DNA from: Macrostomum lignano
Lineage: Eukaryota
Direction: 5' to 3'
Assembly: GCA_002269645.1 (NCBI GenBank)
Contig: NIVC01001319.1
Span: forward strand, 197,775 to 261,774
Length of the DNA: 64,000 nucleotides
In this document: positions 7,355 through 41,030 of the stretch, in pieces
Layout: each line of letters opens with the position of its first letter
How positions within the stretch are numbered: position 1 is the stretch's first letter
Made by a program: the position numbers and the translations under genes
The notes under the pieces: model-generated
Databases searched by the model: none
What the model was told of the DNA's origin: nothing
The model's input: only the letters and a program-made list of their open reading frames with translations

Positions 7355-7800
7355 AGTAGTATGAATTTATGCAACTCTGCCGCACTTGCACTGCGGAGAT
7401 AGGCAGTAATGTAAAAGGATAGGAGGGCGTAAAAGAGCCAGCTGAGATAGCCAATGGAAATAAGGGGCGTGGGGTAGGTGTGCGATTGGCTGGGTGGTGA
7501 AACGCTTATGCAGCTCTGCCGCACTGGGGGAGGCAGGTAGAAAGCAAAGATTTGGAAGGTTTTGGAATAGCAGAGTAAACAAATTAAAAACAAGGTAGGC
7601 ATGGCGTGAAAACGTCCACCTCAATTTGTGCCTGGCCTATGCAACTCCTCGGCGTCCCCACTGTGCTTATCCTATAGCATGTCTATGCAACTCTGCCGCA
7701 CTATTTGTCAGTGGAGTGAAGTAGATAAGAGAGAGGCTCTGGTCTTCTTGGGTGTCTGCCTCTGACCCCCTGGCATTGTTATTAAATGAGCAATAAACTT
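7355..7800 (+). repeat. Left TIR of the outer element (~446 bp)
   Basis: Reverse complement of 26159-26603 with scattered mismatches. Contains repeats of the motif GCAACTCTGCCGCAC (~7371, ~7687; variant ~7510). Confidence 0.9.
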
Positions 7801-7861
7801 AAAAGGGTTGTGTGGCTGATGCCGACGAGCAGCCGCTGCTTGATGCCGAATGAGCAAAAAA

Positions 7862-7915
7862 TGGGGTGGGTGCTCATTCTGACACCCACCCCACTCCGCT
7901 TTGAGGGTATATAAG
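7862..7915 (+). promoter_or_regulatory. 11-bp inverted repeat plus TATA box upstream of the PC4-like gene
   Basis: tggggtgggtg / cacccacccca at 7862-7893 and TATATAAG at 7908-7915, ~85 bp before the ATG. AATAAA signals follow at ~9003-9028. Confidence 0.6.
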
Positions 7916-7997
7916 CCCCCGATTTTTAAATTCAACGGTAAATCTATTTTTTCTTGAATTCGATTTCACAAGTTTTTCACAAGATTTTGTGTGAACT

Positions 7998-8729
7998 ATG
8001 GATATTAGTGAAGGTTACAGAGTGCAGGTCGAAGAATTCGAAGGCCAGGAATACATTGCGATCAGGAAGTTTTACCGACATGGCAGCACAGCAAGCCTCA
8101 AGCCTGGTGTTCCTGGTTTCAACTTGAATGTGCAGCAGTGGACGAAGCTAAAGGAGTCAAAGCGCTCCCTGGTGAAGTCGGCTCTGAATAACGAGGTCAA
8201 GGTCATCAAGCTGGGCTTGGACAAATTTGTTCAAGTCAAGGATGGCCTCATCTGGCTGAAGCGGCTGCCTGAGGACTGCTGTGATGAATTTATGAAGCGC
8301 AACACCGTGCCGCTGTCTCCGAGGCTCTGGCAGAAGCTGTGGCAGACTTCGGACTGGATAGACCAGCAGCCATCAGAGCCCTACCAAGGCGCGGGGGCGA
8401 AGTACGATCTGAGCTCATCCGAAGATGAGAACGAAGACGCCACCGTCATACTGCCAGTCAAAACTGAGGCTGCTGAAGGCGAGGAGAAGGTCGGCTCACC
8501 ATCGGAGATGACAACCGACATCGAGGCTGTGACTTCCACACCTTTGGCCAGAGCCGGCACATCGACTGGGAACATCCCGGCGGAGGACACGGACCTGCAG
8601 CAGGATCCCGTGTGGTACCGATTCCGGGCTCATGCCGCTGAGGTGGAGAACAATCGGAAGCGGAAACTGCCATATCCTCTGCGCAGGCAGGAAACAATGA
8701 AGGTGTCTAAGCTGCGTTTTGAAGACTGA
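7998..8729 (+). CDS. PC4/Sub1-like ssDNA-binding domain protein (probable tandem PC4 domains, acidic/basic tail)
   Basis: YRVQVEEFEGQEYIAIRKFY...KPGVPGFNLNVQQWTKLKE matches the PC4 motif (VSVRDFKGK..IDIREYW..KPGRKGISLNPEQWSQLKE). A second degenerate repeat ends in PLSPRLWQKL. The ORF is intact and intronless. Confidence 0.8.
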   Translation: MDISEGYRVQVEEFEGQEYIAIRKFYRHGSTASLKPGVPGFNLNVQQWTKLKESKRSLVKSALNNEVKVIKLGLDKFVQVKDGLIWLKRLPEDCCDEFMKRNTVPLSPRLWQKLWQTSDWIDQQPSEPYQGAGAKYDLSSSEDENEDATVILPVKTEAAEGEEKVGSPSEMTTDIEAVTSTPLARAGTSTGNIPAEDTDLQQDPVWYRFRAHAAEVENNRKRKLPYPLRRQETMKVSKLRFED

Positions 8730-9037
8730 GCTGGAGGTTGGATAAGACTGATGAGACTCAATGGATAATTCAGTTCTGTTTGATTTTGTCTAATTTTATT
8801 CAGCTAAGTAAGGTTTTGACAATTTTTGTAACCATTTAGTCTTATTTATTCAGGTGTTAACAAAACAAATTTATAAATGCATGCAGTTTATACTTATTTG
8901 CACTACTCAATGCTATTATTTCCTGCAATCTTCTTTTCAAGATAATCAACTGTTCGCAGTCCCCCGAGTTAAAAATATAATAAGTGTACACTTTATGAGT
9001 TGAATAAATGTCTAAATGAATAAATAAAGTAAATTGA

Positions 9038-9241
9038 TGTAACCGCCCTTGTCGCCTGTCCGCTCCGTAGAGAGACGAACGCATGACCAGAGGGGGCAAT
9101 GACCGTAGGCTGCCTATGACCGGGCAATGACCTGACGGACCTCCAGCACCAGAATGTCTCGCCCACATGATTGATAGCTTTGGTAGCGCTTTGTGACCAG
9201 AGGGCCAAGGACCCACATGGACCCCACCTGTAGCCAAGGTG
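9038..9241 (-). mobile_element. LTR-like repeat, part 1 (continues at 17884-18810), split by the inner Polinton-like element
   Basis: Reverse complement of 32690-32893. The segment 17890-18810 is the reverse complement of 31769-32689. Begins TGTAACC. Confidence 0.8.
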
Positions 9242-9538
9242 AGTAGTATACGTTTGTACGCTTCTAGACCCAGAGCCCCTAATCAAACAGGCGATTTGAA
9301 GGGCTAGAGGGGGGACACGAGGGGGGACCAAAAAACACATCTAAACACCCTCAACACAATTAAAACACCCCCAATACCCCCAACACCCCCAACACTACAC
9401 AATACTACTAACACTACCCAATACTACTAACACTTCCAAACAATTCCCTCGCGTCCCCCCATTATTAGCCCTTCAAATCACCCGTTTGATAAGTGACGGA
9501 TCTAGAAACGTACAAATGTATACTACTACTTATAACCC
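9242..9538 (+). repeat. Left TIR of the inner element, itself bounded by ~65-bp inverted arms
   Basis: Reverse complement of 17584-17883 with few mismatches. The arms at 9242-9306 and 9466-9527 are imperfect inverted repeats of each other. Confidence 0.92.
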
Positions 9539-10279
9539 CAGGCTTATTAACCTATCACTTTCATCTACGATCCTAATATAAATTGATTGGACTCTATATT
9601 GATTTAAAGGATAATATATTGGGGTTTGGGGTGCAACAATTATTTTCTCTCCAATTGGAACAGCAAGAAACGGGATTGAATAAATGATTCCACGTTGAAC
9701 CAAAACTCCATTATCATCTGTTATATAACCGCCGTTTGAAAGGTCGGTTGTTATATTAATTGTATTGACTCCACCCTCAATGTTTCCCACCGTATCGCCG
9801 GTGCTTGATGTGGTAACTATTCGGGAATTAAATCCAAGTATGGTTCTGAGTGAATTTGCAATTGTGAAATCAACCTGATATCCAGATCCTAGTGATAGGG
9901 TGAATCTGCCAGATGGTAAATCAACCCCTATAACAATTGCGCCTGCTACCCAATCACCATTAGCTGTTAATTCTCCTTCTATATAAGCATTCAAGTCAGT
10001 ATAGCTATAAGCCCCCGGATTAACACCAAATGTTGTCCAATTAGCTTCTGAATCTTTAGAATATTTAAATTGATTATTTGTTGCATTAATTAATTGAGGC
10101 ATGTTAAAAACCGAAAATAGTATCAAACCAATTTGATAACTTAGGCTTTGATCGAGTTGTAACGGATCGAGCAATTGAATCCGTTGCTCGCTGCTTGTCA
10201 TTATAAACTGTAAGGTTGTACTAAATTTTGAATTAGTTCGATCTACCAATTGTTTTATAGTGTCTAATTTTGTTGCCAT
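9530..10279 (-). CDS. Minor capsid protein (penton), Polinton/adintovirus type
   Basis: Motifs PLQLD..YQIGL..FSVFN..NNQFKY..PGAYSYTDLNAYI and ITTDLSNGGY..IIYSI..P.IYYPL..IYIRIVDE. The stop codon lies inside the TIR and the C-terminus looks clipped. Confidence 0.8.
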   Translation of the reverse strand: MATKLDTIKQLVDRTNSKFSTTLQFIMTSSEQRIQLLDPLQLDQSLSYQIGLILFSVFNMPQLINATNNQFKYSKDSEANWTTFGVNPGAYSYTDLNAYIEGELTANGDWVAGAIVIGVDLPSGRFTLSLGSGYQVDFTIANSLRTILGFNSRIVTTSSTGDTVGNIEGGVNTINITTDLSNGGYITDDNGVLVQRGIIYSIPFLAVPIGEKIIVAPQTPIYYPLNQYRVQSIYIRIVDESDRLISLGL

Positions 10280-10297
10280 TTTTATAGTGGGAAAGCT

Positions 10298-11059
10298 TTA
10301 ATCCTCGTCCTCATTATCTTCTTTTATAAGATCTTTTAAGATTCGATTTTTTCTTTCTAACCTAGGGTTGATATATATGTGTTTGTATTGACTATCATCC
10401 CAAATTTTTTTACACATGCTTTTGAATGGTTTTGCATCCAACCCTGGATTAAATCTCGCGTGTATATTTTATAGATCATAGTTATCTAAATCAAACATTA
10501 CACAACAGCTAGCATTCTTTTTTATAATCGATTCTAATTCTCTAAAGGACTGTGTTAGATAAAAAGCCCCAATTCCATCTCCTCTGCCACTAACAAAAAT
10601 ATCCTTTTGCAATTCTTGATCGCCGTCGTTAATACAATCATCAAAAATAATTAGTGTTTTATCATGTTTTGGAATTTGATCATAGGATAATCGGGTTGAT
10701 ACTCTAACAGTTGGAGAATTGTTGTCTATATTTTCTGGATCTTCTGCCGTTGTTTTACATAAATCCTCAATGTCTGCTAGATTAAATCGCGGTTCGTCAT
10801 CATCCTCATATTGCTCATAAGCTCTTAACATTCTAAACAAGATATCTTTTTTTAATTTGTTTTTTATTCCATGTTTAAGAAATTCATAATATTTTATTCT
10901 AGGTTTGTTAGTATATATTAATAAATTATTATAGTCTAACATTCCATCGGTTGTTAACAGGTCATAAACAAAGTGTGCTTTTCCTTTACCCGACCCACCA
11001 ATTACTAAACAAAGAAAAGGATCGTTTGGAAATATTTTATTATGTTTTGCTTTTACCAT
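10298..11059 (-). pseudogene. A32/FtsK-like packaging ATPase with a premature stop
   Basis: Walker A GGSGKGKA (A in place of T/S), Walker B LIIFDD, and SGR and YLTQS motifs. An in-frame TAA at 10469-10471 is followed by the expected C-terminus NIHARFNPGLDAKPFKSMCKKIWDDSQY up to a stop at 10298-10300. Confidence 0.88.
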
Positions 11060-11110
11060 TTTTAAGGATATAATTTAAATAGGCTCGACGGTCGGAGACC
11101 TGCACTCATT

Positions 11111-13240
11111 TTACAATGGCGCGTCCTGAACAACGGTACCATCTGCTTTAGCAATTGACATATATTCCTCTAGAAACAATACGTGGGCGTCTAGTGCCTG
11201 ATTACCGTTTTCATTATTCTCTAACATAATTCAAACCAACAGCGCCTACGTTTTCTTTCTGTGCGGTTAGATCAAAAACAACCACTGGGTGAATGTTTAG
11301 AAACTCTGTGGGTGTGTACTGAGGAACAGCATACGCTTCATTTTTGACATAATCCTGATAATATTTTATAAAATCATTAACATTATTATTTGCAAGATTT
11401 AGATTAAGGGGGTCTTTAACCGTGAAGTGATACATTTTGGCTCTAGAAAGCTCCCATCCAGATTGAATGTATTTTAACCAATGAATGCGCTCCAAATAGC
11501 AAAAGCTGAGGACACGACCCCAACCTCAACCAATGAAAAACAGTTATGTACCATCCAATGCGATTAAGACTGAAAAGTACTATTAAAGCTCATGTTAACC
11601 AAGCAAGAAGCTGGCCCTTTTTGCTCGCTCCGCCTCTCCTCGCCCTTGCCTCTCCTTCGCCATTCTCCTAGCTTACCTCGTTTGACTATTTTGATTGACA
11701 CAGTTAGGGTCTCAACCCAAACACCAAAACTTATAAGTCGACTTACTAAAGCCAAACCAACACCCAATCCACGTTTCACAATAGACTGAACCTTCGGTTC
11801 ACCCGAACAACTAGAAACACCTTGTGACTTAAATCGAACGAGCTTCTTATTTGGAATTCCACCTTAGACATTATATTTTGTGAGAAAACATCTCGAGATT
11901 GTGACCATCAAATACAACGGTCTGTAAGTTACCATCAAGTGTTTGCATCATCAGGAAAAGTCAGTTGAATCCGCCGCCTCAGTTATTTGGCTCTCACATT
12001 GATATTTGAAGTAGAACAAGAGCCATAGAAGTGAGAGACCAGAAGAAGAACAATAACCTACATTTTAAAATATTTCAACCGGATAATATTGATCATCAAC
12101 CTGCAGGCGGATATTCTGGACATTAAACTCGTTAATAGCCGAAACCGCGTTGTCAGTTGCGGTGGCCGCCTGTGCTGCTACATCTCCTGATTGAAGCCAA
12201 TATAAATCCCCGTTTGCTCTTTTACTCCTTCTATTTGTTATTTTAAACCAAACAAAAATATATCTCACCCGGCGTTTTGATGTCAGTATTTGCCACTGGA
12301 ATGAATCCTGATTGTTATTAACGGTTCGCATAAAGTGTCGACGATTTAAATAAAATATTTCTTGATCAACCAATAACTGATCATCGATGTGTTTTAAAAG
12401 CGGAGCTGTTACCTCTATAGTTGGTACGACTAATTGAATTGAAGCTATGCGAACTGCTATATCGGTTGAAATCGAAGTTCCATAAAGTATCCTAGGCTGA
12501 TATCCACCAGATATTTGCAACTGTATACCAAATTTTAATCCTTTCCATACACGATTTGGTGAGAAGAACCCAAATAGTGGGAAGATTGAAAAGTCCTGCT
12601 CATATGCGGTTGCCGTGGTTAAAACCGCGACTGGAAATTTATTCTGGCGATCTATAAAACCGGTGTTAATATCTTTTGTGTTAGTCATTGTAGTTACAAC
12701 TGGAACTATATTGGTATTAAGATAAGCTATAAGAGCTGCGGTATCTGCGCCAGCTGCGTTTTGTACGTTAGGGAAAACTACTGCTTGTCCATTACCCTTA
12801 TCCGGCATCCACCCAACACTATCACCAACTTGTTTTGATAAATAAGTATAATTTAAATGTTTCAAAACTTCATTAATCTCTGCTGGGTTTGTTGATGTCT
12901 CAACCTCGGCTCCATTAACTGTTAGTTGGGCTTGGGAAAAACATTTATAAAACCAATCATTTTCTATAATAATACCAGAACGATCTGCGATATCGCCGGC
13001 TGCAAGAGCAGTTCCATCATTTCTAGTATACAACCATCTAACGCGGAAAAACGCATTTTTCATATCCAATATGCTGTTGGTTGCGCCGATGTCAAATGTT
13101 ACTGTTCCCGTAGTAAAATTGTTTGAATTATCGCTTGTTGGTTGGGTAAAAATTAAATCTCTTTTCCTGACCTCGTTAATATACTGACGATATTTTTTGA
13201 AATGAAATTTATCACTCCATATGGTTTTTGTTTCAGCCAT
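11111..13240 (-). pseudogene. Major capsid protein (putative double jelly-roll), interrupted by a solo LTR and a frameshift
   Basis: Polinton MCP-like N-terminal ORF 12065..13240. Removing 11423-12077 plus one TSD rejoins QYYPV-KDPLNLNL..HPVVVFDLTAQ. A 1-nt frameshift near 11230 precedes the tail NENGNQALDAHVLFLEEY. About 490 aa when repaired. Confidence 0.82.
11423..12077 (+). mobile_element. Solo LTR (655 bp)
   Basis: TGAAG...TTTCA ends, 4-bp TSD ACCG (11419-11422 and 12078-12081), three CCAAT boxes and a TATA-like tattaaa at ~11580. Excision restores the MCP frame. Confidence 0.85.
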
Positions 13241-13274
13241 TTTTTAAAGTTAAAAAAGTTTTTTATGTTAAAAA

Positions 13275-13949
13275 ATGAGTCAATTTATGGATGTTGATGA
13301 AGAGTTAGCGATTTATAAAGAGAAGCAAAAATATTCTGATTTTGTTAGAAACTTACAAAAAAGAAAGTTAGGAATACAGCTAGCTGGTGAGAAATTTGCT
13401 GCTCCTTTTGTTAATCCTATTACGGGGAAAATTAGTGAACTAGAAAAAACAGATAAAGACCTTCTTGAAAAAATTGCTAAGAATACGGAGCCAAAAGAGG
13501 ATGAAATTTTGGATGAGCCGCCTGCTTATGATGTTGATCAAGCACTATTGAGAGTTGCAGAGATTAGACGTGCAGAACGGGGTGAAGTTGATGAATATCC
13601 GAGAGCTGCACCACAAAGTATTGCTGTGGTGGATTTAGGTAATGATAATTACCGAATTGGTGGGGTTGATAAAAATCGGAATGAGCTATATAGAGAATTG
13701 GGTGGAGCAAATAATATTATTATGAACCCTAGGGTAAGATTTAACCCTGAATTATATACTAGGGATGAATTAGTAAGTGCTAAAAATTTTTATGATGAGT
13801 TAGGAGTAAGAGCTGCTAAAAATACCAGCTTGTATAAAAGAATTGTTGATTCTATAAATAACAAACCGGCTGTTGGCGAAGGATTTAAAACTCCGCGAAA
13901 ACTTGTTTTAGCTGCTGCGAAAGCTGCTGGACATACAGGAATTAATTAA
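13275..13949 (+). CDS. Polinton accessory protein with an N-terminal coiled-coil (possibly PW-like)
   Basis: Intact 224-aa ORF with AAAAATG start context. The N-terminal ..LQKRKLGIQLAGEKFAAPFVNPITGKISEL resembles, from memory, a conserved Polinton ORF; unverified. Confidence 0.6.
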   Translation: MSQFMDVDEELAIYKEKQKYSDFVRNLQKRKLGIQLAGEKFAAPFVNPITGKISELEKTDKDLLEKIAKNTEPKEDEILDEPPAYDVDQALLRVAEIRRAERGEVDEYPRAAPQSIAVVDLGNDNYRIGGVDKNRNELYRELGGANNIIMNPRVRFNPELYTRDELVSAKNFYDELGVRAAKNTSLYKRIVDSINNKPAVGEGFKTPRKLVLAAAKAAGHTGIN

Positions 13950-13964
13950 ATTTATTTTTTTAAA

Positions 13965-14467
13965 ATGGAAAATACGATAAAAGATTGTCTTTGTAAACCT
14001 ATTTATGATAAAGTTGGTTCTGACAGAATACTAAATGAAATATTTCAAGATGAATTAATAATTTCAAATCGTATTAAAACAATTCAGATGCGCCATGGAT
14101 CTCTTTATGAATTATTAGCTATTAAACATTTTGGTTTTGAAAAAGTAAATAAAATTGATTTAATTCATACCGAAAGAAAAATTGCGTTAGAGTTAAAATC
14201 TTCTGATAATACAGATAATTCATCAAGTCGATTTAGAAATATTCAAAAGTTATTAGAATTTAAATATGTTAATCCCGAATTTGATTTATGTTATATTTGC
14301 ATTAATAATACTACTAAAAACCCGTACAAAAGGTATTTGTTAATGGTGTTACTTTGTTAAGTGGGGAATTTGCTTTAAATTTTTTATATGGTGATCAATA
14401 TTTGGAAATTATTAAACTGATAGAAACATGTTTTTTAAACATTAAAAATGAGCCAACTTGTGTTTGA
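13965..14467 (+). pseudogene. PD-(D/E)xK type II restriction-endonuclease-like protein (Eco47II-like), frameshifted
   Basis: Motifs KTIQMRHGSLYE..GF..ID..ELKSSDNTDNSSS..KL. A frameshift at the A-run ~14328-14331 opens KKVFVNGVTLLSGEFALNFLYGDQYLEIIKLI to a stop at 14465-14467. The family assignment is by motif recognition only. Confidence 0.6.
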
Positions 14468-16028
14468 AGGTGGATTGTTGGATGTTCAAAAAGGATTAAC
14501 AAGCTTACCAAGCGTTTTTACTACTGGAAAATATACAAATGAATTACACATACCAGGGTATTCGTAAGCAGGTTAACCCGTGGCCTGAGTGAGGAAGGCA
14601 ATGTCCTTGCTAGTCTGCTAGTCACTATTAGTGGCGACACCTTCAAATTGCGTGAAACGCGTCATACAGCTTCAAGTACCACTTTAACTGAGAAATCTTT
14701 TGAAGGAACAGAGGTAACTCCTCTTCCCAAAGGTAACAAGCTTGAAGACATGGTGGCAATGCGCAGCCAAGCTCCTAAGTATTTAATATAAGGAGAAGGT
14801 TCAGAGAGCAGACGGAGGTGGGCGGTAATCATCACCGCTTAAAGTGTGCTCCAGCCTCTTTCGAAAGATTGTGGGGAAACTACCGGGGACAAGATTGGAT
14901 TTGAGGTTAAATCCGGATGATACTCCAAAGCCTGATTCAATTCCTATTAATGGCATTGATTGGTTAGCCTATTATCACGACTTAGCATACAGAGATGCTG
15001 ATAAGAACTCCCCCGAGGAAGCATTAAGATTAAAACATGAAGCCGATCGAAAAATGATTCAAGGATTAGATAATCTACAGGGCTTATCGGTAAGCCAAAG
15101 ATTAACTCGGTGGATGGTTAAAAAGATCTTGCAGTCTAAAGTTAAATTTGGTTTGGGAATTAATTACAATCAACATGGAAATAGTTGTGTTGATTGTCTG
15201 TTATTAAGTGGTGGTGGGTTAAGTTCTGATGAGGCAAAGGTTCTTCACAAAGAATACCGAAAGCCTAAATTTTATAGAAAAATCATGAACTTCAAAAAGA
15301 ATGAAATTTGGTATGCTGATTTAATGTCAATGCCGAACGAAAGAGGATATAAATATATCTTAACCATACTGGATGGTTTTACTCGATACGCGTGGGCTGT
15401 TCCTTTAAAATCCAAAAAAGGAGAGGAGGTTGCTGCTGCTTTTAGAAGCCTTGGAGAAAAAAGTGAAAGCTTGTGTGTTGACGAAGGAAAAGAATTTTAC
15501 AATCCTCACATGTATAAATTGTATCATTTTGAAAAAGGACAAGAAAGGAAAAAGGACGCGAATGGGGAGTATATTAATAAAATTTATTCTATTTATGGAG
15601 AAAGTAAAAACGCACTTATTGAAAGATTTAATCGAACTTTAGGTAAGAAATTGTGGTTTCAGTTTAGTTTGAATGGAAACCAAAAGTGGGTAAAAATATT
15701 GCCAGACGTTGTTAAAGATTATAATAATTCATATCATTCGGCTATAAAGATGACTCCTCAACAATCTTATAACAATCCTGAAAATGTTAAGGTTACCTTC
15801 GGGGACTTTGAAAAAAATAAAAAGAAACCTTTTAAGGTTGGTGATTCTGTTTATATCTATAAATGGAAAGATAAGTTTGAAAAAGGAAGAAAAGGATATT
15901 GGAAAATAAGTGAGAAATTTACTATCAGTAAAGTTTTAAATACAAATCCTACAACCTATATCATTGCTGATAAAGATGGTGAAGAAATATTGCGTTCTTT
16001 TTATGAGAACCAGATAATGTTAGTTTAG
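14448..16028 (+). pseudogene. Phospholipase A2-like (parvovirus/adintovirus type) plus retroviral-like DDE integrase fusion; exons 14448-14573 and 14883-16028
   Basis: Spliced product ELHIPGYS*AG|PGTRLDLRL..PINGID..AYYHDLAY (PLA2 Ca-loop and HD dyad). The rve core shows WYADL / VDEGKEF / IERFNRTL, then YNNSYHSAIKMTP and FKVGD. One in-frame TAA at 14565-14567 sits where Tyr/Phe is expected. Confidence 0.9.
14574..14882 (+). ncRNA. Group I self-splicing intron, IC1-like (with P5abc), no internal ORF
   Basis: P1: exon CAGGU pairs with IGS GCCUG (14583-14587) with the U.G pair at the splice site. P3: 14638-14644 with 14814-14820. P4: UGCGUG with UGCGCA. P5a A-rich bulge GGUAACAAGCU and a GAAA-looped P5b. 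P6a: CUCCU with AGGAG. P7: GAGCA (14806-14810) with UGCUC (14847-14851). P8: GGCGGU with ACCGCU. Removal restores G-P-G-T in frame. The terminal base is A rather than the expected omega-G. Confidence 0.88.
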
Positions 16029-16343
16029 TTTTATACTTTTAGTGACTCTAGGGGGTGGTGTATTTTTATCATCTGTTAATAAAGTTTTAAATGGTGTAGA
16101 GTATTCTTTATATTTAAATGAGTTAATAATTTGTTCAAGTTCAAAATACCATTCATCTCTATAAACTGGCGTTTTGAAATTGAACAAATTATCATTAAGA
16201 TATTCACTAACTTGAACTTCAATAGATTTGGTGTCGTATTTTTCTGGAAATTCTTTTATTAAATCTTTAATTTCATCTGTGGTTAATGGGTATATTTTTA
16301 CTCCTCGAATTTCTACATGTTTTATTAAATCCTTTTTTATCAT
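16020..16343 (-). CDS. Small hypothetical protein, KIYPL-motif family (paralog 1)
   Basis: IKHVEIRGVKIYPLTTDEI; the N-terminus may extend upstream through a frameshift. Confidence 0.6.
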   Translation of the reverse strand: MIKKDLIKHVEIRGVKIYPLTTDEIKDLIKEFPEKYDTKSIEVQVSEYLNDNLFNFKTPVYRDEWYFELEQIINSFKYKEYSTPFKTLLTDDKNTPPPRVTKSIKLN

Positions 16344-16354
16344 CTCTTTGATTT

Positions 16355-16738
16355 CTACCGTCTTATTAATAAAAATTTTTTAAGTTTTTCATAATTACCC
16401 TTCTCTATGCCATGTTTGTTAATAGTTTTTAGTGGTGGTAATGAATACTCTTTATATTTAAGATTACGAACATCAGCAAAAATATTCATTGCTGACTTAA
16501 ATGATCGTAAAGCTAGTTGATAATTATTCAAATATGTAACCAAATCAATAACATCATCAGTAATAATAATATTACTAACAAAGCTCAGGTGTCTTTTTTT
16601 AGTTTTATATTCTAGTTGGTTAATTTCAGATGGTTTTAATGGATATATTTTTACTCCTTCTAATAGTACAATTTTTATTAAACCATCATCTATCTTCTGT
16701 TTTAGATCTTTTAACCTTTGGCCAATTTCTGATTCCAT
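16355..16738 (-). CDS. Small hypothetical protein, KIYPL-motif family (paralog 2)
   Basis: IKIVLLEGVKIYPLKPSEI; AAAAATG start context; shares KYKEYS with paralog 1. Confidence 0.65.
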   Translation of the reverse strand: MESEIGQRLKDLKQKIDDGLIKIVLLEGVKIYPLKPSEINQLEYKTKKRHLSFVSNIIITDDVIDLVTYLNNYQLALRSFKSAMNIFADVRNLKYKEYSLPPLKTINKHGIEKGNYEKLKKFLLIRR

Positions 16739-16928
16739 TTTTATGGATAAATTTTATATAATTGTTTATTTGAGACAGCAAGGTAATAATTTTTTTATAA
16801 CATATAAAAACAATATTATCACTATTATTGTTACTAATAATTTTTTGACATTTGTTCAACCGTTATCAAACTTAAATTTTCATTAAGTTCATTAATTGGC
16901 ACATTTCCGATATAGGAATAATTTACCT

Positions 16929-17222
16929 TCATTTTTTATATATATTTTTAACAATAAATGTTGTTTCTGTTACAGAGTAATAGTTCATTTTTTTAATATT
17001 TTTTTCGCAGTTTAAACATTGTGCTAAAAGAAGACTTTGCTCCCCCTTATCCCAAATATAATCTAATTCTCCAATTTCAAGCGGATATATCTTTATATCT
17101 GGAAAAATATATACTTCATCGATTGTTTTATCCTTTAATAATTTTTTTATTGAATCGAGTGCATTGAACATTGTTTGGGTTGATTCAGTTATTGAAAAGT
17201 AGAGTCTGTTAACTAATTCCAT
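16929..17222 (-). CDS. Small hypothetical protein, KIYPL-motif family (paralog 3)
   Basis: NRLYFSI...IDEVYIFPDIKIYPLEIGEL; AAAAATG start context. Confidence 0.65.
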   Translation of the reverse strand: MELVNRLYFSITESTQTMFNALDSIKKLLKDKTIDEVYIFPDIKIYPLEIGELDYIWDKGEQSLLLAQCLNCEKNIKKMNYYSVTETTFIVKNIYKK

Positions 17223-17224
17223 TT

Positions 17225-17539
17225 TTACATAAAAATTTCACTTTCATTCTCCGAATCGCTAGTTTCATATGAACTATTTGTTGAGTTGGAATCATCTGAA
17301 CGAACCTCCCAATCATCCGAATTTAAATAATCTCCAAGTTGAAATATTAACTCCCCCTCTTGTTCTAAATCATACATCCCATCCAACTCTAGCGGATAAA
17401 GTTTTAGTTCTGTTTTGTCATCATATTTTAAATAAACTTCATCAATTATTCCATTCAAAATATGCTGTTTTATAATCTCTGAATTTTTAGCAACAGTCTC
17501 AAAAGTATCACTAACTGAAAAGGTGTAAACTCGGTTCAT
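17225..17539 (-). CDS. Small hypothetical protein, KIYPL-motif family (paralog 4), acidic tail
   Basis: MNRVYTFSV...IDEVYLKY..KLYPLELDG. The likely start is the AAAAATG at 17539, not the track start inside the TIR. Confidence 0.65.
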   Translation of the reverse strand: MNRVYTFSVSDTFETVAKNSEIIKQHILNGIIDEVYLKYDDKTELKLYPLELDGMYDLEQEGELIFQLGDYLNSDDWEVRSDDSNSTNSSYETSDSENESEIFM

Positions 17540-17583
17540 TTTTAGTAACAGAAAAAGACCCTTCGCGCCGCAGGCGCGGCGAC

Positions 17584-17883
17584 GGGTTATATGTAGTAGT
17601 AGGCATTTGTACGCTTCTAGATCCGTCACTTATCAAACGGGTGATTTGAAGGGCTAATAATGGGGGGACGCGAGGGAATTGTTTGGAAGTGTTAGTAGTA
17701 TTGGGTAGTGTTAGTAGTATTGTGTAGTGTTGGGGGTGTTGGGGGGTATTGGGGGTGTTTTAATTGTGTTGAGGGTGTTTAGATGTGTTTTTTGGTTCCC
17801 CCCTCGTGTCCCCCCCTCTAACCCTTCAAATCGCCTGTTTGATTAGGGGCTCTGGGTCTAGAAGCGTACAAATGTATACTACT
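17584..17883 (-). repeat. Right TIR of the inner element
   Basis: Inverted copy of 9242-9538; G-run-rich core at ~17730-17780. Confidence 0.92.
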
Positions 17884-18810
17884 AAGGTGCAATAGTTGGT
17901 CACTCGGTCATAGTATGACCGAGTGGCTGCCACCACTCTATGTGACCTGGCGCACCTGGATCTTTCTACCAGACCTCTCGAGGCTAGAGCCCCGCCTGGG
18001 ATGGTTACCAGGAGATTTAGGCTAACAGGGGAGACACATGCAGCCGAGTACAGGGACTCTGCTTGGGGCATGATCGGGAACTCTGGGCTCAATCTGGAGG
18101 ATTTCTCAGCAGGGGATCCTTTGTGGCTGTGAGCGAGGCTGACTTGCGACTTTGATTACTAAGAGTAGTATGAGGGGAACATGTACTGTCTACAGTTTAG
18201 ATTGCTCAGGGCGAAGGGACGCGTCAGCATCGGGTTGCAACCTTCCTACTGCCATTCTGTGCCAAGACTCGCTAATCCCTCTACTGCACGCACACACGGC
18301 ACCGCAGCACGCACTCACAGGCGGGCTTTGCATGGGAGAGGCCATTAGCTTACCCAAACTTCCTTATGCTTAGCCACCCCGGGAGAAAGGCTTAGCAAGC
18401 CATGAGTGAAATGATGGTGAAAGAGTGAATAATGATGAGGTTAGTTAATAGTTAATAATTAGGCCCTAAGGCAAATAGTCAGGCAATTAGGCGGCTTCAC
18501 TATTGAGTAAAATACAGCAAAAGTTACGGTATCACAATTGGCTCAGCTCTCTAATTAAGCAATGGCAAATAGGCAAACCCCGGATAAGTAAAGGCGATTG
18601 GAGCACAAATTAGTAATAGGAACTTACCGGCAGCTGCACAGAGAGAGAGAGCGGCGGAGTGACCGAGGGCGGCTGTAGGCTGCAGTCAGGCAGACAGTGA
18701 AGCGGCGATGCGCTGAAGCGACGAGGCGCTGATGTAGATCAGGCGATGCTGATGATGCTGGGCGGTACCAGACCGCTGGCCGATAGACGAGCTTACTTGG
18801 GAGCTAAGGT
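17884..18810 (-). mobile_element. LTR-like repeat, part 2 (truncated at 18810)
   Basis: Near-identical reverse complement of 31769-32695. Confidence 0.8.
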
Positions 18811-20345
18811 CAACCAACGAGCCAACGAGTTCTACCCGAAAATGGACAGCAGTGGATCCCCTGGACCCTGAAAGTTCAGGGTTCCCCAGCGTTGACGAAA
18901 GAAATCTGGAAGAGCTTAGCATCGGCCCATACCACGTTCTTCAGTCAAAACGCTACATCGAAAACGTCAGAGTTCATGAGGTGCTCAGTAGCTACGCTGG
19001 AGACTCGTGGCGCGATTTCGAATTGTTGATTTCTGAACTGCCAAGCCATTTAAAATGCTGGAAGTTTCATCAGCGAGCGCCACCAAAGGGGTGGAGCAGT
19101 AAGTTTGGAGAATGGAGGCCATCTTGGATATATTTAGCCGTTCTTCATTCCCGTCATCGGTCAAAAACTTACCGAGTTGTCCTTCGTATTTGCGAAACTG
19201 CAAGTGGTAACCGATTCGGAGTTCGTGACTCGGGGCTGCTGCGTCTGCATGGCTACTTTTCATCCTTAAAGGCCGGAAGCAGGACAGCAGGGTGTGACAG
19301 TCATGTTATGGCTGTGGTTAGAATGCTAGGCTGTTATGCATATCACCCCGAAAGCTACAACATGTGCGGCAGCAGCTTCCGATTTATTGACAGTGCTTTG
19401 CCAAAAGCACTGATTGCCAATCTTTACAATGATCAATCTGGTGGTCATCCAGCTCCAAATGCACCTCGCAGAGACAGTGCTGAATCGCAGCAAGATGAAC
19501 AGAGGCACAGTTTAAATGCTACTGGTTCATTGAATTCGCCGAAGAAGTTATTTGGGTTGCCAAATAATGGCCTGCAGTGCTACGTAAATGCAGCAGTGCA
19601 ATTGTTTCTCTGCCTGCATTCTAATGGATGCATTTTAAAAGAGACTAGCAACGACTAGCATCGAGAGCTGCTTCGTCTTCTGACGGAGATGCAACAGCGG
19701 TCTGCAACAGTCACTCCACTGTTAACGGCAGTTCGGTTGCAACATCCAGATTCATTTCAAACAAATCAGCACCATTGCGTCAACGAATTTGTTCAAACGC
19801 TTCTAATACATCTGGAATTTCTGTCATCAGATACTTTCACAGAATTTTCACTCATTCAAACTTGTCGGGATTGCCAGCGCACAAGTGCTGAAGTTCCTGT
19901 TGGCACAATCGATAACAGAGTGATTTGCATTCCTCTCTGTCAATTTGAGCGCTCAATTGTCAGTTTAGACAAAATCTTCTGCGCTTTTGTCGCTCCTCAA
20001 GTAGTGAAATGTTCGGACGCCAATTGCCTGGGCGATTGTAATCGAGAGATCGTAGTAACACCTGGAAAGTTTACCCTGATTTATCTTGATCGTGCTAGTA
20101 TGGATGGCCACCTAAAGCTTCAAACTCCTGTAAGCTTTTCTTCAAGGTCAGGGGGTGTTTCTACACTTGGTAAGCCAGTGGCCACAATATCACACCATGG
20201 AAACCGACTGAAATCGGGACATTTCACAGCAAGCGTACTGAGCTGTGTGTGGACGAATATTGACGACATGAAAGTTACGTCAGACTATAACCCGTTCGTA
20301 CGTGAGCCTGAGTGCATCGTGCTCGTTGCACTTTTAAACTCGTAA
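18811..20345 (+). pseudogene. 5'-truncated ISL2EU-like (DDE_Tnp_4) transposase C-terminus with SWIM-like finger, fused in frame to a USP/peptidase C19 domain
   Basis: KW..D..FP..E..L...G.YH..QSKRYI..HSRH..KTY..KAGSRTAGCDSHV..V..LG. USP Cys box GLPNNGLQCYVNAAVQ and His box HHGNRLKSGHFTA..W..IDDMKV. ORFs 18852 and 19689 are in the same frame, split by a single TAG at 19656-19658. Confidence 0.7.
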
Positions 20346-21015
20346 AAGCATTTTTAGCGAAAATACAATTGTTTTAAGCGAGTGTACTGTACGTTTTGTA
20401 TTGTAGATTTTAAAGGACATGCAGATTAAGAAACAATGTCATATCACGCATTCTTTACGTACCATAGGTTACATGTGAAGATAATTCAGACTGACATCAA
20501 ATAACAAAAGCTTTGAATTAGTTGTTTCAATTTCTTTTAGACTCACAATTAGCTTTTTTTACTGAAGCAAAGAACTTAAACCCAAAAACCGTTTCTTAGG
20601 ACTGAGAAACTTTTGCAATTATGATTTTACTAAGCTTTGCGTGAGAGGCGTTACTTTATTTGCTTAAAAACGTGTGCTGCTTTGCATGACATGCTTTGTT
20701 TTTATTACTTTGATAACTTGTACAGCTTTGCATGATATGCTTTGTATCCATTACGTCATAACTTGTACAGCCTTGCGTGATATTCTTTATTTTACCAATA
20801 TACATGGTTTCGGTTTATCGTCAAAAGTTCTGCTTACTAATAACCAAACGAATTTACAAGTTAATTTTTTCAAACTGAGTTTCCAGGTCGGCATTTTTAA
20901 CAGGTTTCGATACGAGCAAATCATTTTTATTATTTAACAATCAATGTATAATAGCTGAAATAAAATACACCCGCTAATGCGATATTCGAATTGAATAGAG
21001 CTTCGTCACTTGAAA

Positions 21016-21287
21016 CCGGATGGGATGTCTCGGCGATTCTAGTCGTCTGGGCCGACAAGTTATCGATTGCAGTCGGTTTGGTCCGGAGCTGAACTTCGGG
21101 CTCCATTCCAGAGCCTTAAGTTGACATGAGATCCCCAATTTATCCCCTTTATCCCCTGGGACCCCAATGAAGGGAGCCGGATGGGATGTCTCGGCGATTC
21201 TAGTCGTCTGGGCGGACAAGTTATCGATTTCAGTCGGTTTGGTCCGGAGCTGAACTTCGGGCTCCATTCTGGTGCTTAAGTTGACAT
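21016..21287 (+). repeat. Direct repeat of a ~112-bp hairpin-rich unit (21016-21127 and 21177-21287)
   Basis: Two near-identical copies separated by a 49-bp spacer. Confidence 0.9.
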
Positions 21288-21388
21288 CCCCTTTTCGCGA
21301 GCAGTGCGAGCGGGCGTACGCACCGGGGACAGCTCCAGAACGCGACTATATTTGGATCAGCGACGACTAAGAGGAGGGTGACAGCGAG

Positions 21389-21982
21389 ATGGAATCGGAG
21401 TTGGAAGACATACCGGATGTCCTAGCGTGGAAGCTGGTGTTGGCAGGGCGACAAGTGGTAGACCCGGAACGATTGGTGTTGCCAACGTCTGTAGAGTTTG
21501 GGGAGCTGCGGAAGAAGCTGAGAGAAGCTCTGCTAGCTGGCGAAGAGGTGGAGATTTGGCAGGCGATGAGGCGTCTGTGCGAGATGTTCGTAGCGCGAGG
21601 GGAAGAGCCCCGAAGATACGTCACGGCCGCGCTGGTTCAGGTGCTGAAGTTCTTGCGGCGTGATCTGTCGGTAACGTGGTCAAAGGGCCGCGGTCGACGC
21701 CGGGGTTGGAAGGTGGAGCGGTTGAGAAAGGCGGTGAGAGCGGTGAACGCGGTGGTTGAGCAGTACGATCTGCTGCAAGCCGGTCACGTGAGGAGGCTGC
21801 TGCGCTGGTGTGCTCGGGTGGTGGCGTGCGAGTTGCTAGTAGAGTGTGAGTGTGGGTTGTGCTGGGGGTGCGGGCCCCGTCGTGCGGGTCCGGTTGTTCG
21901 TTTCCCTGTCCCTCGTGCTGGTGCGTGTATCCTATTTTCCATATTAGTCGTATGCTGTTGGGTTACCGTACGGGTGGTATGA
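21389..21982 (+). CDS. GC-rich orphan ORF, 197 aa, with a CxCxxCxxC cluster
   Basis: Open ATG-started frame with helical composition; no family recognised. Confidence 0.4.
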   Translation: MESELEDIPDVLAWKLVLAGRQVVDPERLVLPTSVEFGELRKKLREALLAGEEVEIWQAMRRLCEMFVARGEEPRRYVTAALVQVLKFLRRDLSVTWSKGRGRRRGWKVERLRKAVRAVNAVVEQYDLLQAGHVRRLLRWCARVVACELLVECECGLCWGCGPRRAGPVVRFPVPRAGACILFSILVVCCWVTVRVV

Positions 21983-22741
21983 GGGTTAGGTAGAGAGGCA
22001 GCCGGGAGACTGAAGGCGGGAGGTGCACGGTTGGCGAGCACTTGGTCGTCCAGTGTGGGTAGCCATGGCGGCGGCCGGGTGAGCAGCAGTGGCGTGCTCC
22101 ACTCAACTGATGGTCCCAGGCCAAGCGGGTTCCAGCGGACGCCAAGCGGTCACCGGGCAGAAGCTTTAAATCTGGTGACGCAGACGCCAGCGCCGGAACC
22201 CCGTACCCAGGCCAGCTATCGAGAGTCAACGGCGCAGGGACGAGAAAGGGCAGCCGACTCGGCAAGGATGTGCAGAGGGACAGTGCGGTGGAGAACGGTG
22301 ACTAGCTCTGATCCTTTATCATTAAACCCTTTTGCGTCGTTCATCGTTAAATCATTGGTGTCAGAATTCCATAAATCTTTTTGCGTCACTAGCATTCAAG
22401 TTTTTTTGCGTTGTCAACGTTCGAATTTTTGCGGTATCACATGGTAGTTCCTTTTGTCATCATTGATTCAACTGTTTGCTTTATTTCGTGTTCCCATCGA
22501 TTTCATGTACGCGTGTTGTCAGTCATGTAGGTCAGGCAGGCGTGGAACCCGTCGCCCAAGTGCGGTGCAGGTTGTGCAGCTGTGGTGTCATTCGTTGTCA
22601 TTCGTTTCTGCAATCTGCGTTACTGGCTCGTATCAGCTTCTTCCTTTTGTTGGGAGGCGGGTGTTGTGTTGTGCACTTTTGCGGTGCCTGTGCACCTAGC
22701 TCCAGCGGGCTGAGTCACCTGTTGGCCTATGGGTTTTTTTG

Positions 22742-23131
22742 TTATCCCCCCCTTTTTTCGTTTCCGTTGCCGCTTCCACCGCCGCTTCCACCGCCGCTTC
22801 CGCTGTTGAAGCTGTTAAAGCCACCGCTTTCACTTGCGCTGTCTTCTGAACATCTAGAAGTTAAACTACTATTGCTGCGTCTGTCGAATGCAAGGATCTT
22901 GTAGTTGCAGAGATGTGAGACATCGATTGAATCTGAATCTTCGGTGGAACTAGAATCTGACAAATCGTCAGCAGATTCTGACAAGCCGTCAACAGATTCT
23001 GACAAATCGGCAGCAGATTCTGACAAAGTTTCAGCTGAATCCGACAAATCTTCCCGAGATTCAAGCTTCAACAAATTCTGAGCCGACTCCGATGCATCTT
23101 CGGAAGAATCTGTCAGGTTGACCCAGTCCAT
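22742..23131 (-). CDS. Ser/Asp/Glu-rich low-complexity ORF with 7-aa repeats and a GS linker
   Basis: 21-bp repeats (gcagattctgacaaatcgtca) and gccgcttccacc repeats; coding status uncertain. Confidence 0.3.
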   Translation of the reverse strand: MDWVNLTDSSEDASESAQNLLKLESREDLSDSAETLSESAADLSESVDGLSESADDLSDSSSTEDSDSIDVSHLCNYKILAFDRRSNSSLTSRCSEDSASESGGFNSFNSGSGGGSGGGSGNGNEKRGG

Positions 23132-23959
23132 ATCACCGGTCCTGTCATTCAGTTACTATTAACGACCGTTATTCGGCTGTAAGATGCAGCGTCAAAGTGC
23201 GATAAAATTTAGATTCATTATTCAAAATTTTATACTGTAAATATTTGCTTTTCCTTACAGTATGCTGACTATACTACATGAAATCAATGTACATATGTAA
23301 AATGAAATAAAAAAACACAAGATCTAACATGTTCATCCAAAATAAACTACTGAATCATATCAGACTGTAAAACTTTAAACTTATATTTGTCAAACTTTCA
23401 AGGTGTTCAGCCACAGAGACAGCAGGTAAGTTTCAAACACCCGAAATATTAATGCAAAAACTTGTATTCATAGTTGAGTCGACAATTACATGATGGGCTT
23501 ATTTAATTGTACTTGATACTACTAAAAGCTATGCTGCCCATAATATTATATCTGGCTTTGATAATCGCTATTAATTAAAACAAAAAACATTTGTCGGCTT
23601 ATTGTAAATCAAATAAAAGCTTAAGTATATTTTAAAGTAAAAAATTAAGGTTTTTTTAAGTAAAATAATTAAGGTAAAACTGACTTTTAAGAGACACCAC
23701 AATACGTTTTCACATTTAAAGCGTGACCAATAATTCGCTTACTCAACGAGACACAAAAATAATGCTGTCATTTTCAATTTTTACAATATATCTAGCTCCA
23801 ATTACTGGTGGCAGCACGAGTTGCAGCTGGTATCGAGTTACGACATTGTTAGCAGCTTCCAATGCACCGTCTCCCAATACCTCCATCAGGGAATCCAATC
23901 CAGCCGGTTCTTCAATAATGTTTGGCTAGGCCATCTGTTCACCAATGTTGATTCTTGAA

Positions 23960-24150
23960 AGCTGCTCGACGTTGACACCAGGCAGTGGCTGCCCGTTGAC
24001 ACCATTCAGCGGCTGCTCGTTGGCGTCAGGCAGCGGCTGATCGTTGACACCATTCAGCGGCTGCTCGGTGACACCATTCAGCGGCTGCTCGTTGCCACCA
24101 TTCAGCGGCTGCCCGTTGACACCATTAAACGGCTGCTTGTTGGCGTCAGT
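23960..24150 (-). repeat. 24-bp tandem repeat reading NEQPLNGV on the minus strand
   Basis: caccattcagcggctgctcgttg units. The frame continues to ~23740 with one TAG, so this may be a decayed exon. Confidence 0.7.
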
Positions 24151-26158
24151 GCATTCAATACTGTGACGAAGTTAATTATTAGCTGTTACGAAGTTAATTA
24201 TTAGCTGTTTATTTAATTAGATTGCACATCCACACGAATGGTATGAGACCAAGCCACGCGAAGCGTTACAAAAAAACGAGCGCGCGACAATTCAAATTGG
24301 CGGGAAACTCCGGTGCACTTAAACCTAAGATGCCTAACTAGAAAAACACTAACAATAGCTACGAGTACAGAATAATTAATACAACTTAAAGAGCGAATTT
24401 ATATATTAAATAATATCGAACCAATAGTCGCAAAACCTCCAATTTACTTAAATAAAACTGATTTCAAATAGAAACCTCAAAATCAGATAGAACCTAAAAA
24501 TGAAAGGTGTTAACGACCTCGTGACACAACACCGTCACACCCGCTCCTCCACCAAAAAAGAACGCTAAGCATACTACTGAAAGTCACGACAACGTAACAC
24601 TGATCGGACATCCTTACTCGAAAAAACATGTATCAATATGACTTACTTTACTTTACGAATCTGAATCAAACTAGGAGCGACTATTCGAACGACATATATT
24701 ACATTACCGAAATGAAAAAAAATATTTGAACGAATTGAGATATTTGAACGAACTATTGAAATGAGCGTTACTTCGAGTCACAACTAAAAAAAACGAATGC
24801 AAATGCAAATGGTTGTGATGACGCAACCTGCTGGAATAAAACTCAGTCACGACGCAGCTGCAGATGGACACGTGACCACTGCAAACGAGCCGACAGCGCC
24901 ACCGACCAGGCCAGCGCCAGCACGAGCCAGACCAGCAGCCACCGCGCCGACGACCGCCGAAGGCCCCGACTATCTCCGCGCAGCGACCAGGCGATTCACG
25001 CCGCCCATAGCCGATCCGCAGACGCCTAACGGCCCGCTCCGAACCATTCAGACCCGCACGAGGCAGCCGAGCGCAACCCTCCGGTTCACACCCCACATAC
25101 ACACGGCAGGCACACACTAGACTACTCCAGAGCTACTCCACCAGCAACAAATAACAACAAATTGGGTCTAAGTGCTAAGTCAAACACTTTGAGAAACCAC
25201 ACCAGTCCCTTTAGTGTGATTTACTGTACTTTTTGGTAAAAGAATGGAACCCGACGACTAATTGTAAGTTATCACAAAGGACTCCCAGTTAAGTAAGCGT
25301 TGGGTTGATCTCTTCGCTTTTTCAGTTTATTCGACCTTCATAATTATTGGCTGCTGGTGGTTTTGTCGGCAAGTCACAGTTGGGCTTTGTTTTTACGCGG
25401 ATTTCCCATTTTTTGTTTGCTAATTACTCGTTATGTGCGTATTAATAACGAATAAAGGCTTAAGTTCGTTACAGACTGACGCTATGAGAAGCAGGTGAAT
25501 ATTTGAATATTTTGTAATTACAAAAATATATAAACTTATATAACAAAACAGGAATCTAAACATTACTCTAGCAGAACAAGAAGTGCTCACGGAAGCAAAC
25601 AATCTTTCTCACGAATCGCACATCGTTTATGAAAACGATAGTTGTGCGTGAGGCATCAGGGCAATATGAGTGTTGCTAATGACACAATTGCCGTCAATTT
25701 CACGTAACGCTACAGAGTAGGCATGAGAGTCAAGTTTATTAGCAAACGCATCACATGTTAGGCGTCTAACATGAGCCAGACGGCAACAGCGCACATTAGA
25801 ATCTTGCGATACGCCTGCTTGTTCGAAAGGTGTACCAATCTCTAGTTCTTCCACACAGAGATTTTATAGCATCACTCGAACGTCCTCGTTGGATGCGTTC
25901 ATATATATGCATATATACATGTGTATATCTATATATAGTGCATATAGTGCATAGTGCATAGTGCATATAGTGCATATTGGTATATATATATGAACCACTA
26001 AGGGTCTTTATCTTGTTTATTTCTTCTCGTATTTTTTATTTATGTATTATTATATGCTATAATACAAGTACGCTCGTACGCTCGTACTATTATATTCACT
26101 ACCCCCTCCAATCATATCAGAGCAGCAAGAAGCCCACCCCACAACACAACCCGTTACA

Positions 26159-26603
26159 AAGTTTATTGCTCATTTATTAACAATGCCAGTGCGCCAGAGG
26201 CAGACACCCAAGAAGACCAGAGCCTCTCTCTTATCTACTTCACTCCACTGACAAATAGTGCGGCAGAGTTGCATAGACATGCTATAGGATAAGCACAGTG
26301 GGGACGCCGAGGAGTTGCATAGGCCAGGCACAAATTGAGGTGGACGTTTCCACGCTATGCCTACCTTGTTTTTAATTTGTTTACTCTGCTATTCCAAAAC
26401 CTTCCAATTATTTGCTTTGCTACCTGCCCCACAAAGCGGCAGAGTTGAATAAGCGTTTTACCACCCAGCCAATCGCACACCTACCCCACGCCCCTTATTT
26501 CCATTGGCTATCTCAGCTGGCTCTTTTACGCCCTCCTATCATTTTACATTACTGCCTATCTCCGCAGTACAAGTGCGGCAGAGTTGCATAAACTCATACT
26601 ACT
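26159..26603 (-). repeat. Right TIR of the outer element
   Basis: Inverted copy of 7355-7800. Confidence 0.9.
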
Positions 26604-26775: not shown

Positions 26776-27084
26776 CTATGTACCTACCTACCTACCTACC
26801 AACCTATCTATATATCTACAAGCTGTTGGAAACCCGCAGATTTTGAACCCAGGGAACTCCAATCCCTAGAAATATTTTTGCATGTATTCTAAAATCTGAA
26901 GTCATACTTAAACAAAAACTTTTTAATAGTTAGGAATTTAGGATAGAGTTAAACATAAAATAGAGTACATTCATGTAAAATTAGTATTTGAAGCAAACAT
27001 TAATATTGTTCGTTGGGGTGCTGCGCAGAATGTCAGACAAACTCATGGCCTCTGCCTCTCCTTGTGTCCCTTAGAAGTTGGATC

Positions 27085-40603: not shown

Positions 40604-41030
40604 ACAAGCATCCCCCAGATAGCAAGCATTCCCCCAGATAGCAAGCATTCCACAGATTGCAAGCATCCCCCAGATAGCAAGCATCCCCCAGATAGCAAGC
40701 ATCCTCCAGATAGCAAGCATCCCCCAGATAGCAAGCATCCCCCAGATAGCAAGCATCCCCAGATAGCAAGCATTCCCCAGATAGCAAGCATCCACCAGAT
40801 AGCAAGCATCCTCCAGATAGCAAGCATCCCCCAGATAGCAAGCATCCCTCAGATAGCAAGCATCCCTCAGATAGCAAGCATCCACCAGATAGCAAGCATC
40901 CCTCAGATAGCAAGCATCCCCCAAATTGCAAGCATCGCCCAGATAGCAAGCATCCCCCAGAAAGCAAGCATCCTCCAAATAGCAAGCATCCCCCAGATAG
41001 ATAGCATCCCCAAATAGCAACCATCCACCA
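40604..41030 (+). repeat. ~20-bp satellite (CCCCCAGATAGCAAGCATCC); other arrays at ~44220-44650, 47680-48365, 55135-55600 and 62268-62635
   Basis: Tandem units near the 3' end of each Helitron unit. Confidence 0.93.

Follow-up and report, generated by a model that had tools for sequence, protein, structure and literature searches.

A fold-back terminal inverted repeat in a decayed Polinton-like element of Macrostomum lignano as a possible self-priming end

To our knowledge, models have been proposed for the exit of integrated Polintons and PLVs from the chromosome and for the onset of their replication, and none of them has been shown. Terminal palindromes have been described in virophages of Halocafeteria seosinensis (subtypes 1, 2, 5 and 6) as well as in PLV subtype 4, and, according to the accessible part of the preprint (bioRxiv 10.64898/2026.07.28.741278), they occur preferentially in elements with non-pPolB replication genes; its authors propose hairpin priming as an untested model, with accidental annealing as the alternative. 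Replicase turnover beside terminal inverted repeats (TIRs) is discussed in the available portions of PMC11296320 and 10.64898/2026.10.13.758929, and the word 'hairpin' does not occur in those of 10.1101/2024.03.25.586562, 10.1101/2023.10.06.561300 and 10.1101/2025.02.07.637071. For Polintons, no fold-back of the kind reported here is described in the accessible parts of PMC8097293 and PMC8502044. No large-loop fold-back TIR in Polintons is evident from the titles and abstract openings of the papers surveyed either, a partial coverage that does not establish absence from print. The terminal palindrome and the idea of hairpin priming are known already from the preprint, whose supplements may hold longer palindromes. 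New here are a long stem, a large loop and Polinton-type ends, which together appear unusual and whose function we infer from a single damaged copy.

We analyzed a window of 64,000 nucleotides of M. lignano DNA (GenBank assembly GCA_002269645.1, contig NIVC01001319.1, positions 197,775 to 261,774 of the forward strand), in which a single copy of the element was seen (Table 1). A preliminary description of this DNA had reported TIRs with imperfect arms of ~65 bp. The start and the end quoted there were located at 9242 and at 9501-9527, respectively, and the arms are indeed imperfect, but they measure 82 bp (80% over 85 columns, E 1e-13 for the left pair). The palindrome said to cap each TIR is present as a fold-back unit of 286 nt, flush with the terminus, although the TIR itself continues for 11 bp to 9538. 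The right TIR, described as the same, shares the architecture without being identical: the two TIRs differ by 6 substitutions and 3 one-base gaps (97% identity), including differences at positions 8-9 of the right inner end, and their loops are 122-124 nt long. Four AGTAGT ends with a target site duplication (TSD) at the outer pair only were also correctly recognized, as AAGGTG is repeated around the whole element only. Since any flush palindrome repeats the terminus inward, the four ends simply follow from the hairpin and are not separate evidence for mini-elements.

The left loop contains 9- and 19-bp tandem repeats, each loop carries two extra copies of the octamer AGTAGTAT, and G+T accounts for 83% of the loop on the 3'-end strand, where the loop stays unpaired. 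Both arms retain a TCAAA-N7-TTTGA dyad and a G-rich block. A scan in 600-nt tiles gave six local inverted repeats of at least 30 nt in the whole window, with separated arms in the TIR pair only. The extension past the left hairpin contains the last two codons and the stop of the penton ORF, together with a TATAA-like word. At the right end, the extension is followed by a short GC-rich hairpin and then by a gene start ~50 bp away; at the left end, it abuts the broken end of the penton gene. The GC-rich hairpin (17562-17583) separates the right TIR from the first gene and has no left-end counterpart. AT-rich imperfect palindromes are also found at 13238-13277, between the divergent starts of the capsid gene and the gene at 13275, and at 16126-16192, inside a small ORF.

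Table 1. Features of the inner element and its surroundings (window coordinates; a dot marks features given without strand).
Feature	Position	Strand	Remarks
Outer AGTAGT-ended element	7355..26603	.	TIR 94.8%, TSD TATAAG; no fold-back, used as control
Left TSD AAGGTG	9236..9241	+	
Inner Polinton-like element (double jelly-roll capsid, rve integrase)	9242..17883	.	8642 bp, decayed copy; TIRs 97% identical, 6-bp TSD
Left TIR	9242..9538	+	297 bp
Left outer arm	9242..9323	+	Starts (AGT)2
Left loop	9324..9445	+	122 nt; only 3 G on + strand
Left inner arm	9446..9527	-	Inverted copy of terminus, 80% to outer arm
TIR extension past hairpin	9528..9538	+	10/11 common with right end
Minor capsid (penton) gene	9530..10279	-	Cut short at TIR border
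A32-like packaging ATPase ORF	10469..11059	-	Pfam Pox_A32 E 9e-5, 22.5 bits vs cut-off 22.8
Major capsid gene, two pieces	11214..13240	-	Split by ~630-bp insertion
224-aa ORF	13275..13949	+	No Pfam or PHROG match; atlas matches all below 0.9
Eco47II-like restriction-type endonuclease ORF	13965..14360	+	Pfam RE_Eco47II E 0.0011, below cut-off; atlas 0.92-0.93
PLA2-like domain and rve integrase	14448..16028	+	5' part apparently interrupted near 14565-14870
Four small related ORFs	16020..17539	-	Pairwise BLASTP E 1e-7 to 0.1
Right TIR	17584..17883	-	300 bp
Right TIR extension	17584..17594		
Right inner arm	17595..17676		
Right loop	17677..17800		
Right outer arm	17801..17883		
Right TSD AAGGTG	17884..17889	+	

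The (AGT)2//(ACT)2 ends and the 6-bp TSD are those of Polintons/Mavericks. The target is an LTR-like repeat (a label taken from its ends), through which the inner element is nested in the outer one, and an uninterrupted paralogue of the target site (32896-31769) has AAGGTG once. The two repeat halves (9035-9241 and 17884-18810) are 95.7% and 99.9% identical to this paralogue, and a 2-kb duplication (28086-30089 vs 30175-32177) is 99.95% identical; such near-identity reflects either recent conversion or an assembly artefact. The outer element has AGTAGTAT ends, and its TIRs of ~460 bp contain a repeated motif of ~19 bp. Its genes include those for PC4 and a UCH-type protease, with no capsid, integrase or polymerase match in 64 ORFs; it is a non-autonomous or accessory-gene-only Polinton-like element. 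Elsewhere, the window contains a long CT-rich low-complexity tract (27000-31500) and a satellite of 23-bp period (~41000-62000, starting near 41000, with 314 in-register matches). Rfam gave no matches on 9200-17900, and the TIR of the inner element has no match in the phage collection. Two scans for the TIR DNA of relatives in bacterial and archaeal genome contigs returned 73 and 504 pattern matches, none of which was confirmed.

In common with Polintons/Mavericks, the inner element encodes an rve integrase, a double jelly-roll (DJR) major capsid protein, a penton and a packaging ATPase. The best Foldseek match of the predicted penton, from a low-confidence model (pLDDT 57), is the mavirus penton 6g41 (E 1.3e-5). 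The major capsid protein has three homologues at 42-49%, its second piece matches protein P0001 (E 4e-18), and a deeper search with alignment A1 returned the same three proteins only. The capsid piece in the window gave no Pfam match to a DJR family, and its DJR assignment comes from relatives: 11 of 14 match the DJR-like family PF21738, 10 of them above the cut-off, the 14 having been chosen among 150 listed of 218 profile hits. The insertion that splits the gene (~11435-12065) is flanked by an 8-bp direct repeat and has no second copy in the window. The ORF at 14829-16025 matches rve (E 2.3e-7, 31.4 bits vs a cut-off of 32.6) and Phospholip_A2_4 (E 0.029), with transposase matches in PHROG, and the gene probably starts upstream, at 14448. 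No direct repeat of at least 5 bp was found flanking the apparent ~300-bp interruption of its PLA2-like 5' part. The four small ORFs have no family match in Pfam or PHROG.

Nine gene starts share the motif T-A(4-6)-TG, which occurs 13 times among the 259 ATGs of the inner element and is absent from all four ORF starts checked in the outer element. The motif may provide a strong translation context or act as a late promoter of the large-DNA-virus type, and the latter would point to a helper virus. The PLA2-like domain suggests an animal host, since the accessible part of PMC8502044 describes virion and accessory genes of the adintovirus kind as apparently confined to animals.

A protein-primed PolB (pPolB) and a maturation protease, both expected of Polintons/Mavericks, were not found among 71 of the 77 ORFs of at least 40 aa in the inner element, the other six being those that straddle its ends. 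The same 71 ORFs gave no match to polymerase, primase, helicase, Rep/HUH or protease families, and no alternative replication gene emerged from Pfam, PHROG or the atlas. A hidden replicase in the ORF at 13275-13949 was considered and found no support in the same three resources. The suggestion that the element replicates without pPolB is nevertheless weak and may hold for this copy only, as the penton gene is truncated at the left TIR border. The penton lacks a 13-residue C-terminal tail present in 5 of 5 homologues; homology breaks off as soon as the reading frame enters the TIR, with its first codon there, and translation would stop within the TIR extension. A tail continuing in another frame, in the TIR or elsewhere, was sought and rejected (the junction scores 2.0 at best and ranks 1915 of 62751 placements), and across the whole window the best tail score was 22, compared with 42-54 for real tails. 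Since the TIR border is exactly where the gene breaks off and its tail is nowhere in the window, sequence was lost at the left end of this copy, and the absence of pPolB may be an accident of that loss. Supply of a polymerase by the outer element was rejected, since none was found in 64 of its 64 ORFs of at least 55 aa. The outer element shows neither a polymerase nor a hairpin, indicating that lack of pPolB does not require a hairpin.

When folded as single-stranded DNA, a check that the preliminary description had proposed, the ends of the inner element pair far beyond chance. The top strand reaches -52.6 kcal/mol (z -11.4) and the two 3'-end strands -61.7 and -62.2 kcal/mol (z -13.1 and -12.6), and for none of the three did any of 200 shuffles reach this stability, whereas control TIRs of the outer element gave z of 0.1, -1.4 and 0.3 (30 shuffles each). 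On the 3'-end strand, which folds ~9 kcal/mol better than the opposite strand, the last base is paired in silico to the initial base of the inner AGTAGT, beyond which the core would serve as template. A panhandle between the two TIRs (-365 kcal/mol) is far more stable than two local hairpins (-115 kcal/mol), so local hairpins are favored only kinetically or when one end is exposed, and would act on a transiently exposed end.

The outer and inner arms differ consistently in both TIRs at 13 of 85 columns (10 events, including two gaps). None of these differences falls in the first 27 columns (p 0.017 for the tip), but the same run is not significant when it may fall anywhere (p 0.18). There are six consistent transitions, of which five produce a G.T and not an A.C pair when read on the 3'-end strand (one-sided p 0.11 by our own arithmetic, with two of the six adjoining gaps). 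Tip conservation and wobble bias are only suggestive of hairpin maintenance; a strand-specific mutation bias, such as strand-biased deamination, would yield the same wobble pattern. Either way, the pattern points to a fixed polarity of the end. Flip/flop would swap the arms and invert the loop, as deduced from the AAV model in the accessible part of PMC1131931, so fixed polarity fits symmetric flip/flop poorly. Both ends (2/2) have the same orientation, for which 50% is expected by chance.

We tentatively favor, with a probability of roughly 0.45, the reading that the inner element is one Polinton-like integrating virus whose fold-back end serves, in one orientation, as a self-primer or local duplex origin. 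Its observed parts are the structure itself, a 3' end that pairs flush, one TSD only, an inward flank common to both units and a left end that is truncated; the functional steps are deduced. The inverted copy of the terminus would have arisen once in a TIR and is now carried at both ends. An end made single-stranded by excision or strand displacement would snap into the local 82-bp stem, giving a duplex end with a base-paired 3'-OH. A polymerase would then extend this 3'-OH into the core, or the stem would act as an origin without an 8.6-kb panhandle; the enzyme could stem from a block of genes that this copy would have lost on its left, from a helper or from the host. The end would hold one orientation without flipping, and the rve integrase would insert the full-length duplex with a 6-bp TSD. 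For the opening of a closed hairpin end, the Eco47II-like nuclease is only a candidate.

The case for such a self-priming end lies in a fold of z -11 to -13 whose 3' terminus sits flush on the inner AGTAGT, the difference-free tip, the five of six transitions that keep G.T pairs on the better-folding 3'-end strand, the G+T-rich unpaired loop, and the resemblance of the hairpin plus extra TIR sequence to the A-A' stem and D sequence of AAV, as given in the available part of PMC1131931. Against it stand the weaker values for the tip (p 0.18) and the wobble (p 0.11), the more stable panhandle, the outer element that also lacks a polymerase yet has no hairpin, the (AGT)2 ends, which are an ordinary Maverick motif in the accessible text of PMC8097293, and the reliance on one copy. 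Several of these points would suit a neutral relic instead, which we consider rather unlikely: an ordinary pPolB-encoding Polinton whose end was duplicated in inverted orientation by a one-off fold-back or template switch, with TIR homogenization spreading the duplicate to both ends, the inner arm decaying, and pPolB and protease then lost at the left. The penton cut exactly at the TIR border, the 13 differing columns with their two gaps, and the weak tip and wobble statistics agree with it, as does the size of 8.6 kb, given that most vertebrate Mavericks are degraded and intact ones span 12.7-24.6 kb (PMC8097293, accessible part); accidental annealing is also allowed for in the available text on Halocafeteria (bioRxiv 10.64898/2026.07.28.741278). 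However, neutral decay does not readily account for the absence of consistent differences in the terminal 27 bp (p 0.017) or for the extremely skewed, unpairable loop, and polymerases would extend a free 3' end that folds at -62 kcal/mol, which is unlikely to be inert. The preliminary description had instead proposed terminal hairpins for self-primed, parvovirus-like replication without pPolB. The geometry of that proposal is borne out by the flush 3' end and the core template, but its parvovirus-like part is not, as no Rep/HUH or helicase was found in 71 of the 77 ORFs and the ends share one orientation. A replicase-free virus that borrows the polymerase of a host or helper for a rolling hairpin of the parvovirus type, resolving its termini and carrying flip/flop ends, is accordingly improbable in our view, even though it could draw on the correct priming geometry with a D-like extension, on the scan without polymerase, primase or helicase families, and on the presence of a nuclease gene. 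Besides the missing Rep/HUH gene and the like orientation of the ends (weak evidence at 50% by chance), the G/T loop strand and wobble bias indicate a single polarity, sequence is missing from the left end, and the 122-nt loop is far above the 10-nt gap limit of the Halocafeteria screen. We consider it similarly improbable that the element represents a lineage of small, probably animal-associated Polinton-like viruses without protein priming, whose single-stranded copies would be self-primed at large-loop terminal hairpins, extended by the polymerase of a host or helper virus, opened by their own restriction-like nuclease and rve-inserted; if true, this would be a parvovirus-style replicon in a double jelly-roll capsid.

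The other readings concern the nature of the 286-nt unit. A composite transposon built from two Polinton-derived MITEs, as first suggested for this locus, or from a single MITE that was subsequently duplicated at the opposite end, is very improbable, although the unit does have the anatomy of a MITE, with inverted arms of 82 bp around a core that is non-coding. A TSD is absent around both units: among 20 tests, with flank pairs of 4-8 bp and both registers of the inner end, none was perfect and the best had 3 matching bases. Homology between left and right continues for 11 bp past the inner ends at 10/11 (chance ~2e-5), so the two TIRs are copies of one structure, and two independent insertions are excluded. 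Neither a solo ~290-bp copy with its own TSD nor a solo arm or loop was found elsewhere in the 64-kb window, a weak test at that size. Arms 15-20% apart would be unusual for a MITE. One old insertion, with the TIR later copied to both ends, is possible. We give still less credence to the view that no hairpin is involved, the arms acting within duplex DNA as a repeated pair of promoter or protein-binding sites, or the loop as a G-quadruplex. In favor of this view are the dyad and G-rich block in both arms and a TATAA-like word, which the extension places ~50 bp upstream of where the ORF at 17539 starts, but the exact terminus in the inner arm would be left unexplained. That the G-run core might form G-quadruplexes, also put forward earlier, is favored by G4Hunter (own implementation), which peaks at 2.5-2.6 in the loop against a threshold of 2.0, a level reached by 0.08% of window 25-mers. 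However, the loop has only three close G-tracts, and a search for the canonical motif of four tracts joined by loops of 1-7 nt found none; one motif with loops up to 12 nt sits in the stem, where it competes with pairing; and G4-aware folding placed no G-quadruplex in the full TIR. For the loop alone it gave only -1.4 kcal/mol, although calibration of the G4 terms may be poor when DNA parameters are used.

If the end indeed primes itself, a TIR with a built-in flush 82-bp fold-back would be a concrete substrate for the start of Polinton/PLV replication. Fold-back TIRs should then track the loss or replacement of pPolB among relatives, which would extend the association proposed for protist elements to Polinton-type ends, in a form missed by short-gap palindrome screens; if relatives carry pPolB and plain TIRs, the fold-back would be a curiosity of one family only. 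As in the Halocafeteria elements, the palindrome lies in a TIR adjoining the TSD, an RVE integrase is present, and hairpin priming suggests itself. In the available text of the preprint, however, the example palindrome is 52 nt long and the screen admitted gaps of at most 10 nt, as opposed to an 82-bp stem, a 122-nt loop and (AGT)2 ends here, and those elements have a protist host and preferentially a non-pPolB replication gene, whereas no replicase was found in 71 of the 77 ORFs here. Tlr1 elements likewise combine an RVE integrase and a capsid without pPolB, but there another large replication gene replaces it (PMC11161782, accessible part); none was found here. With Polintons, Mavericks and adintoviruses, as presented in the available portions of PMC8097293 and PMC8502044, the element shares the (AGT)2//(ACT)2 ends, the 6-bp TSD, a TIR length within range, major and minor capsid genes, the ATPase, the rve integrase and the PLA2-like domain. 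It differs from them as an 8.6-kb copy without pPolB or protease and by a TIR with an inverted copy of its own end. With the ITR of AAV and parvoviruses it shares a terminal stem with a base-paired 3'-OH and a repeat stretch outside the hairpin (PMC1131931, available part), but it has no T-shape and no evidence of flip/flop, and carries an integrase and a double jelly-roll capsid instead of Rep. The primable 3' terminal hairpin of a parvovirus-type replicon is thus present in silico only, and an HUH/SF3 Rep was not found in 71 of the 77 ORFs. As it stands, the element fails to belong to either group, lacking pPolB for a Polinton and Rep for the parvovirus type; in its workings it resembles a Polinton-type integrating virus, possibly with a parvovirus-style primer.
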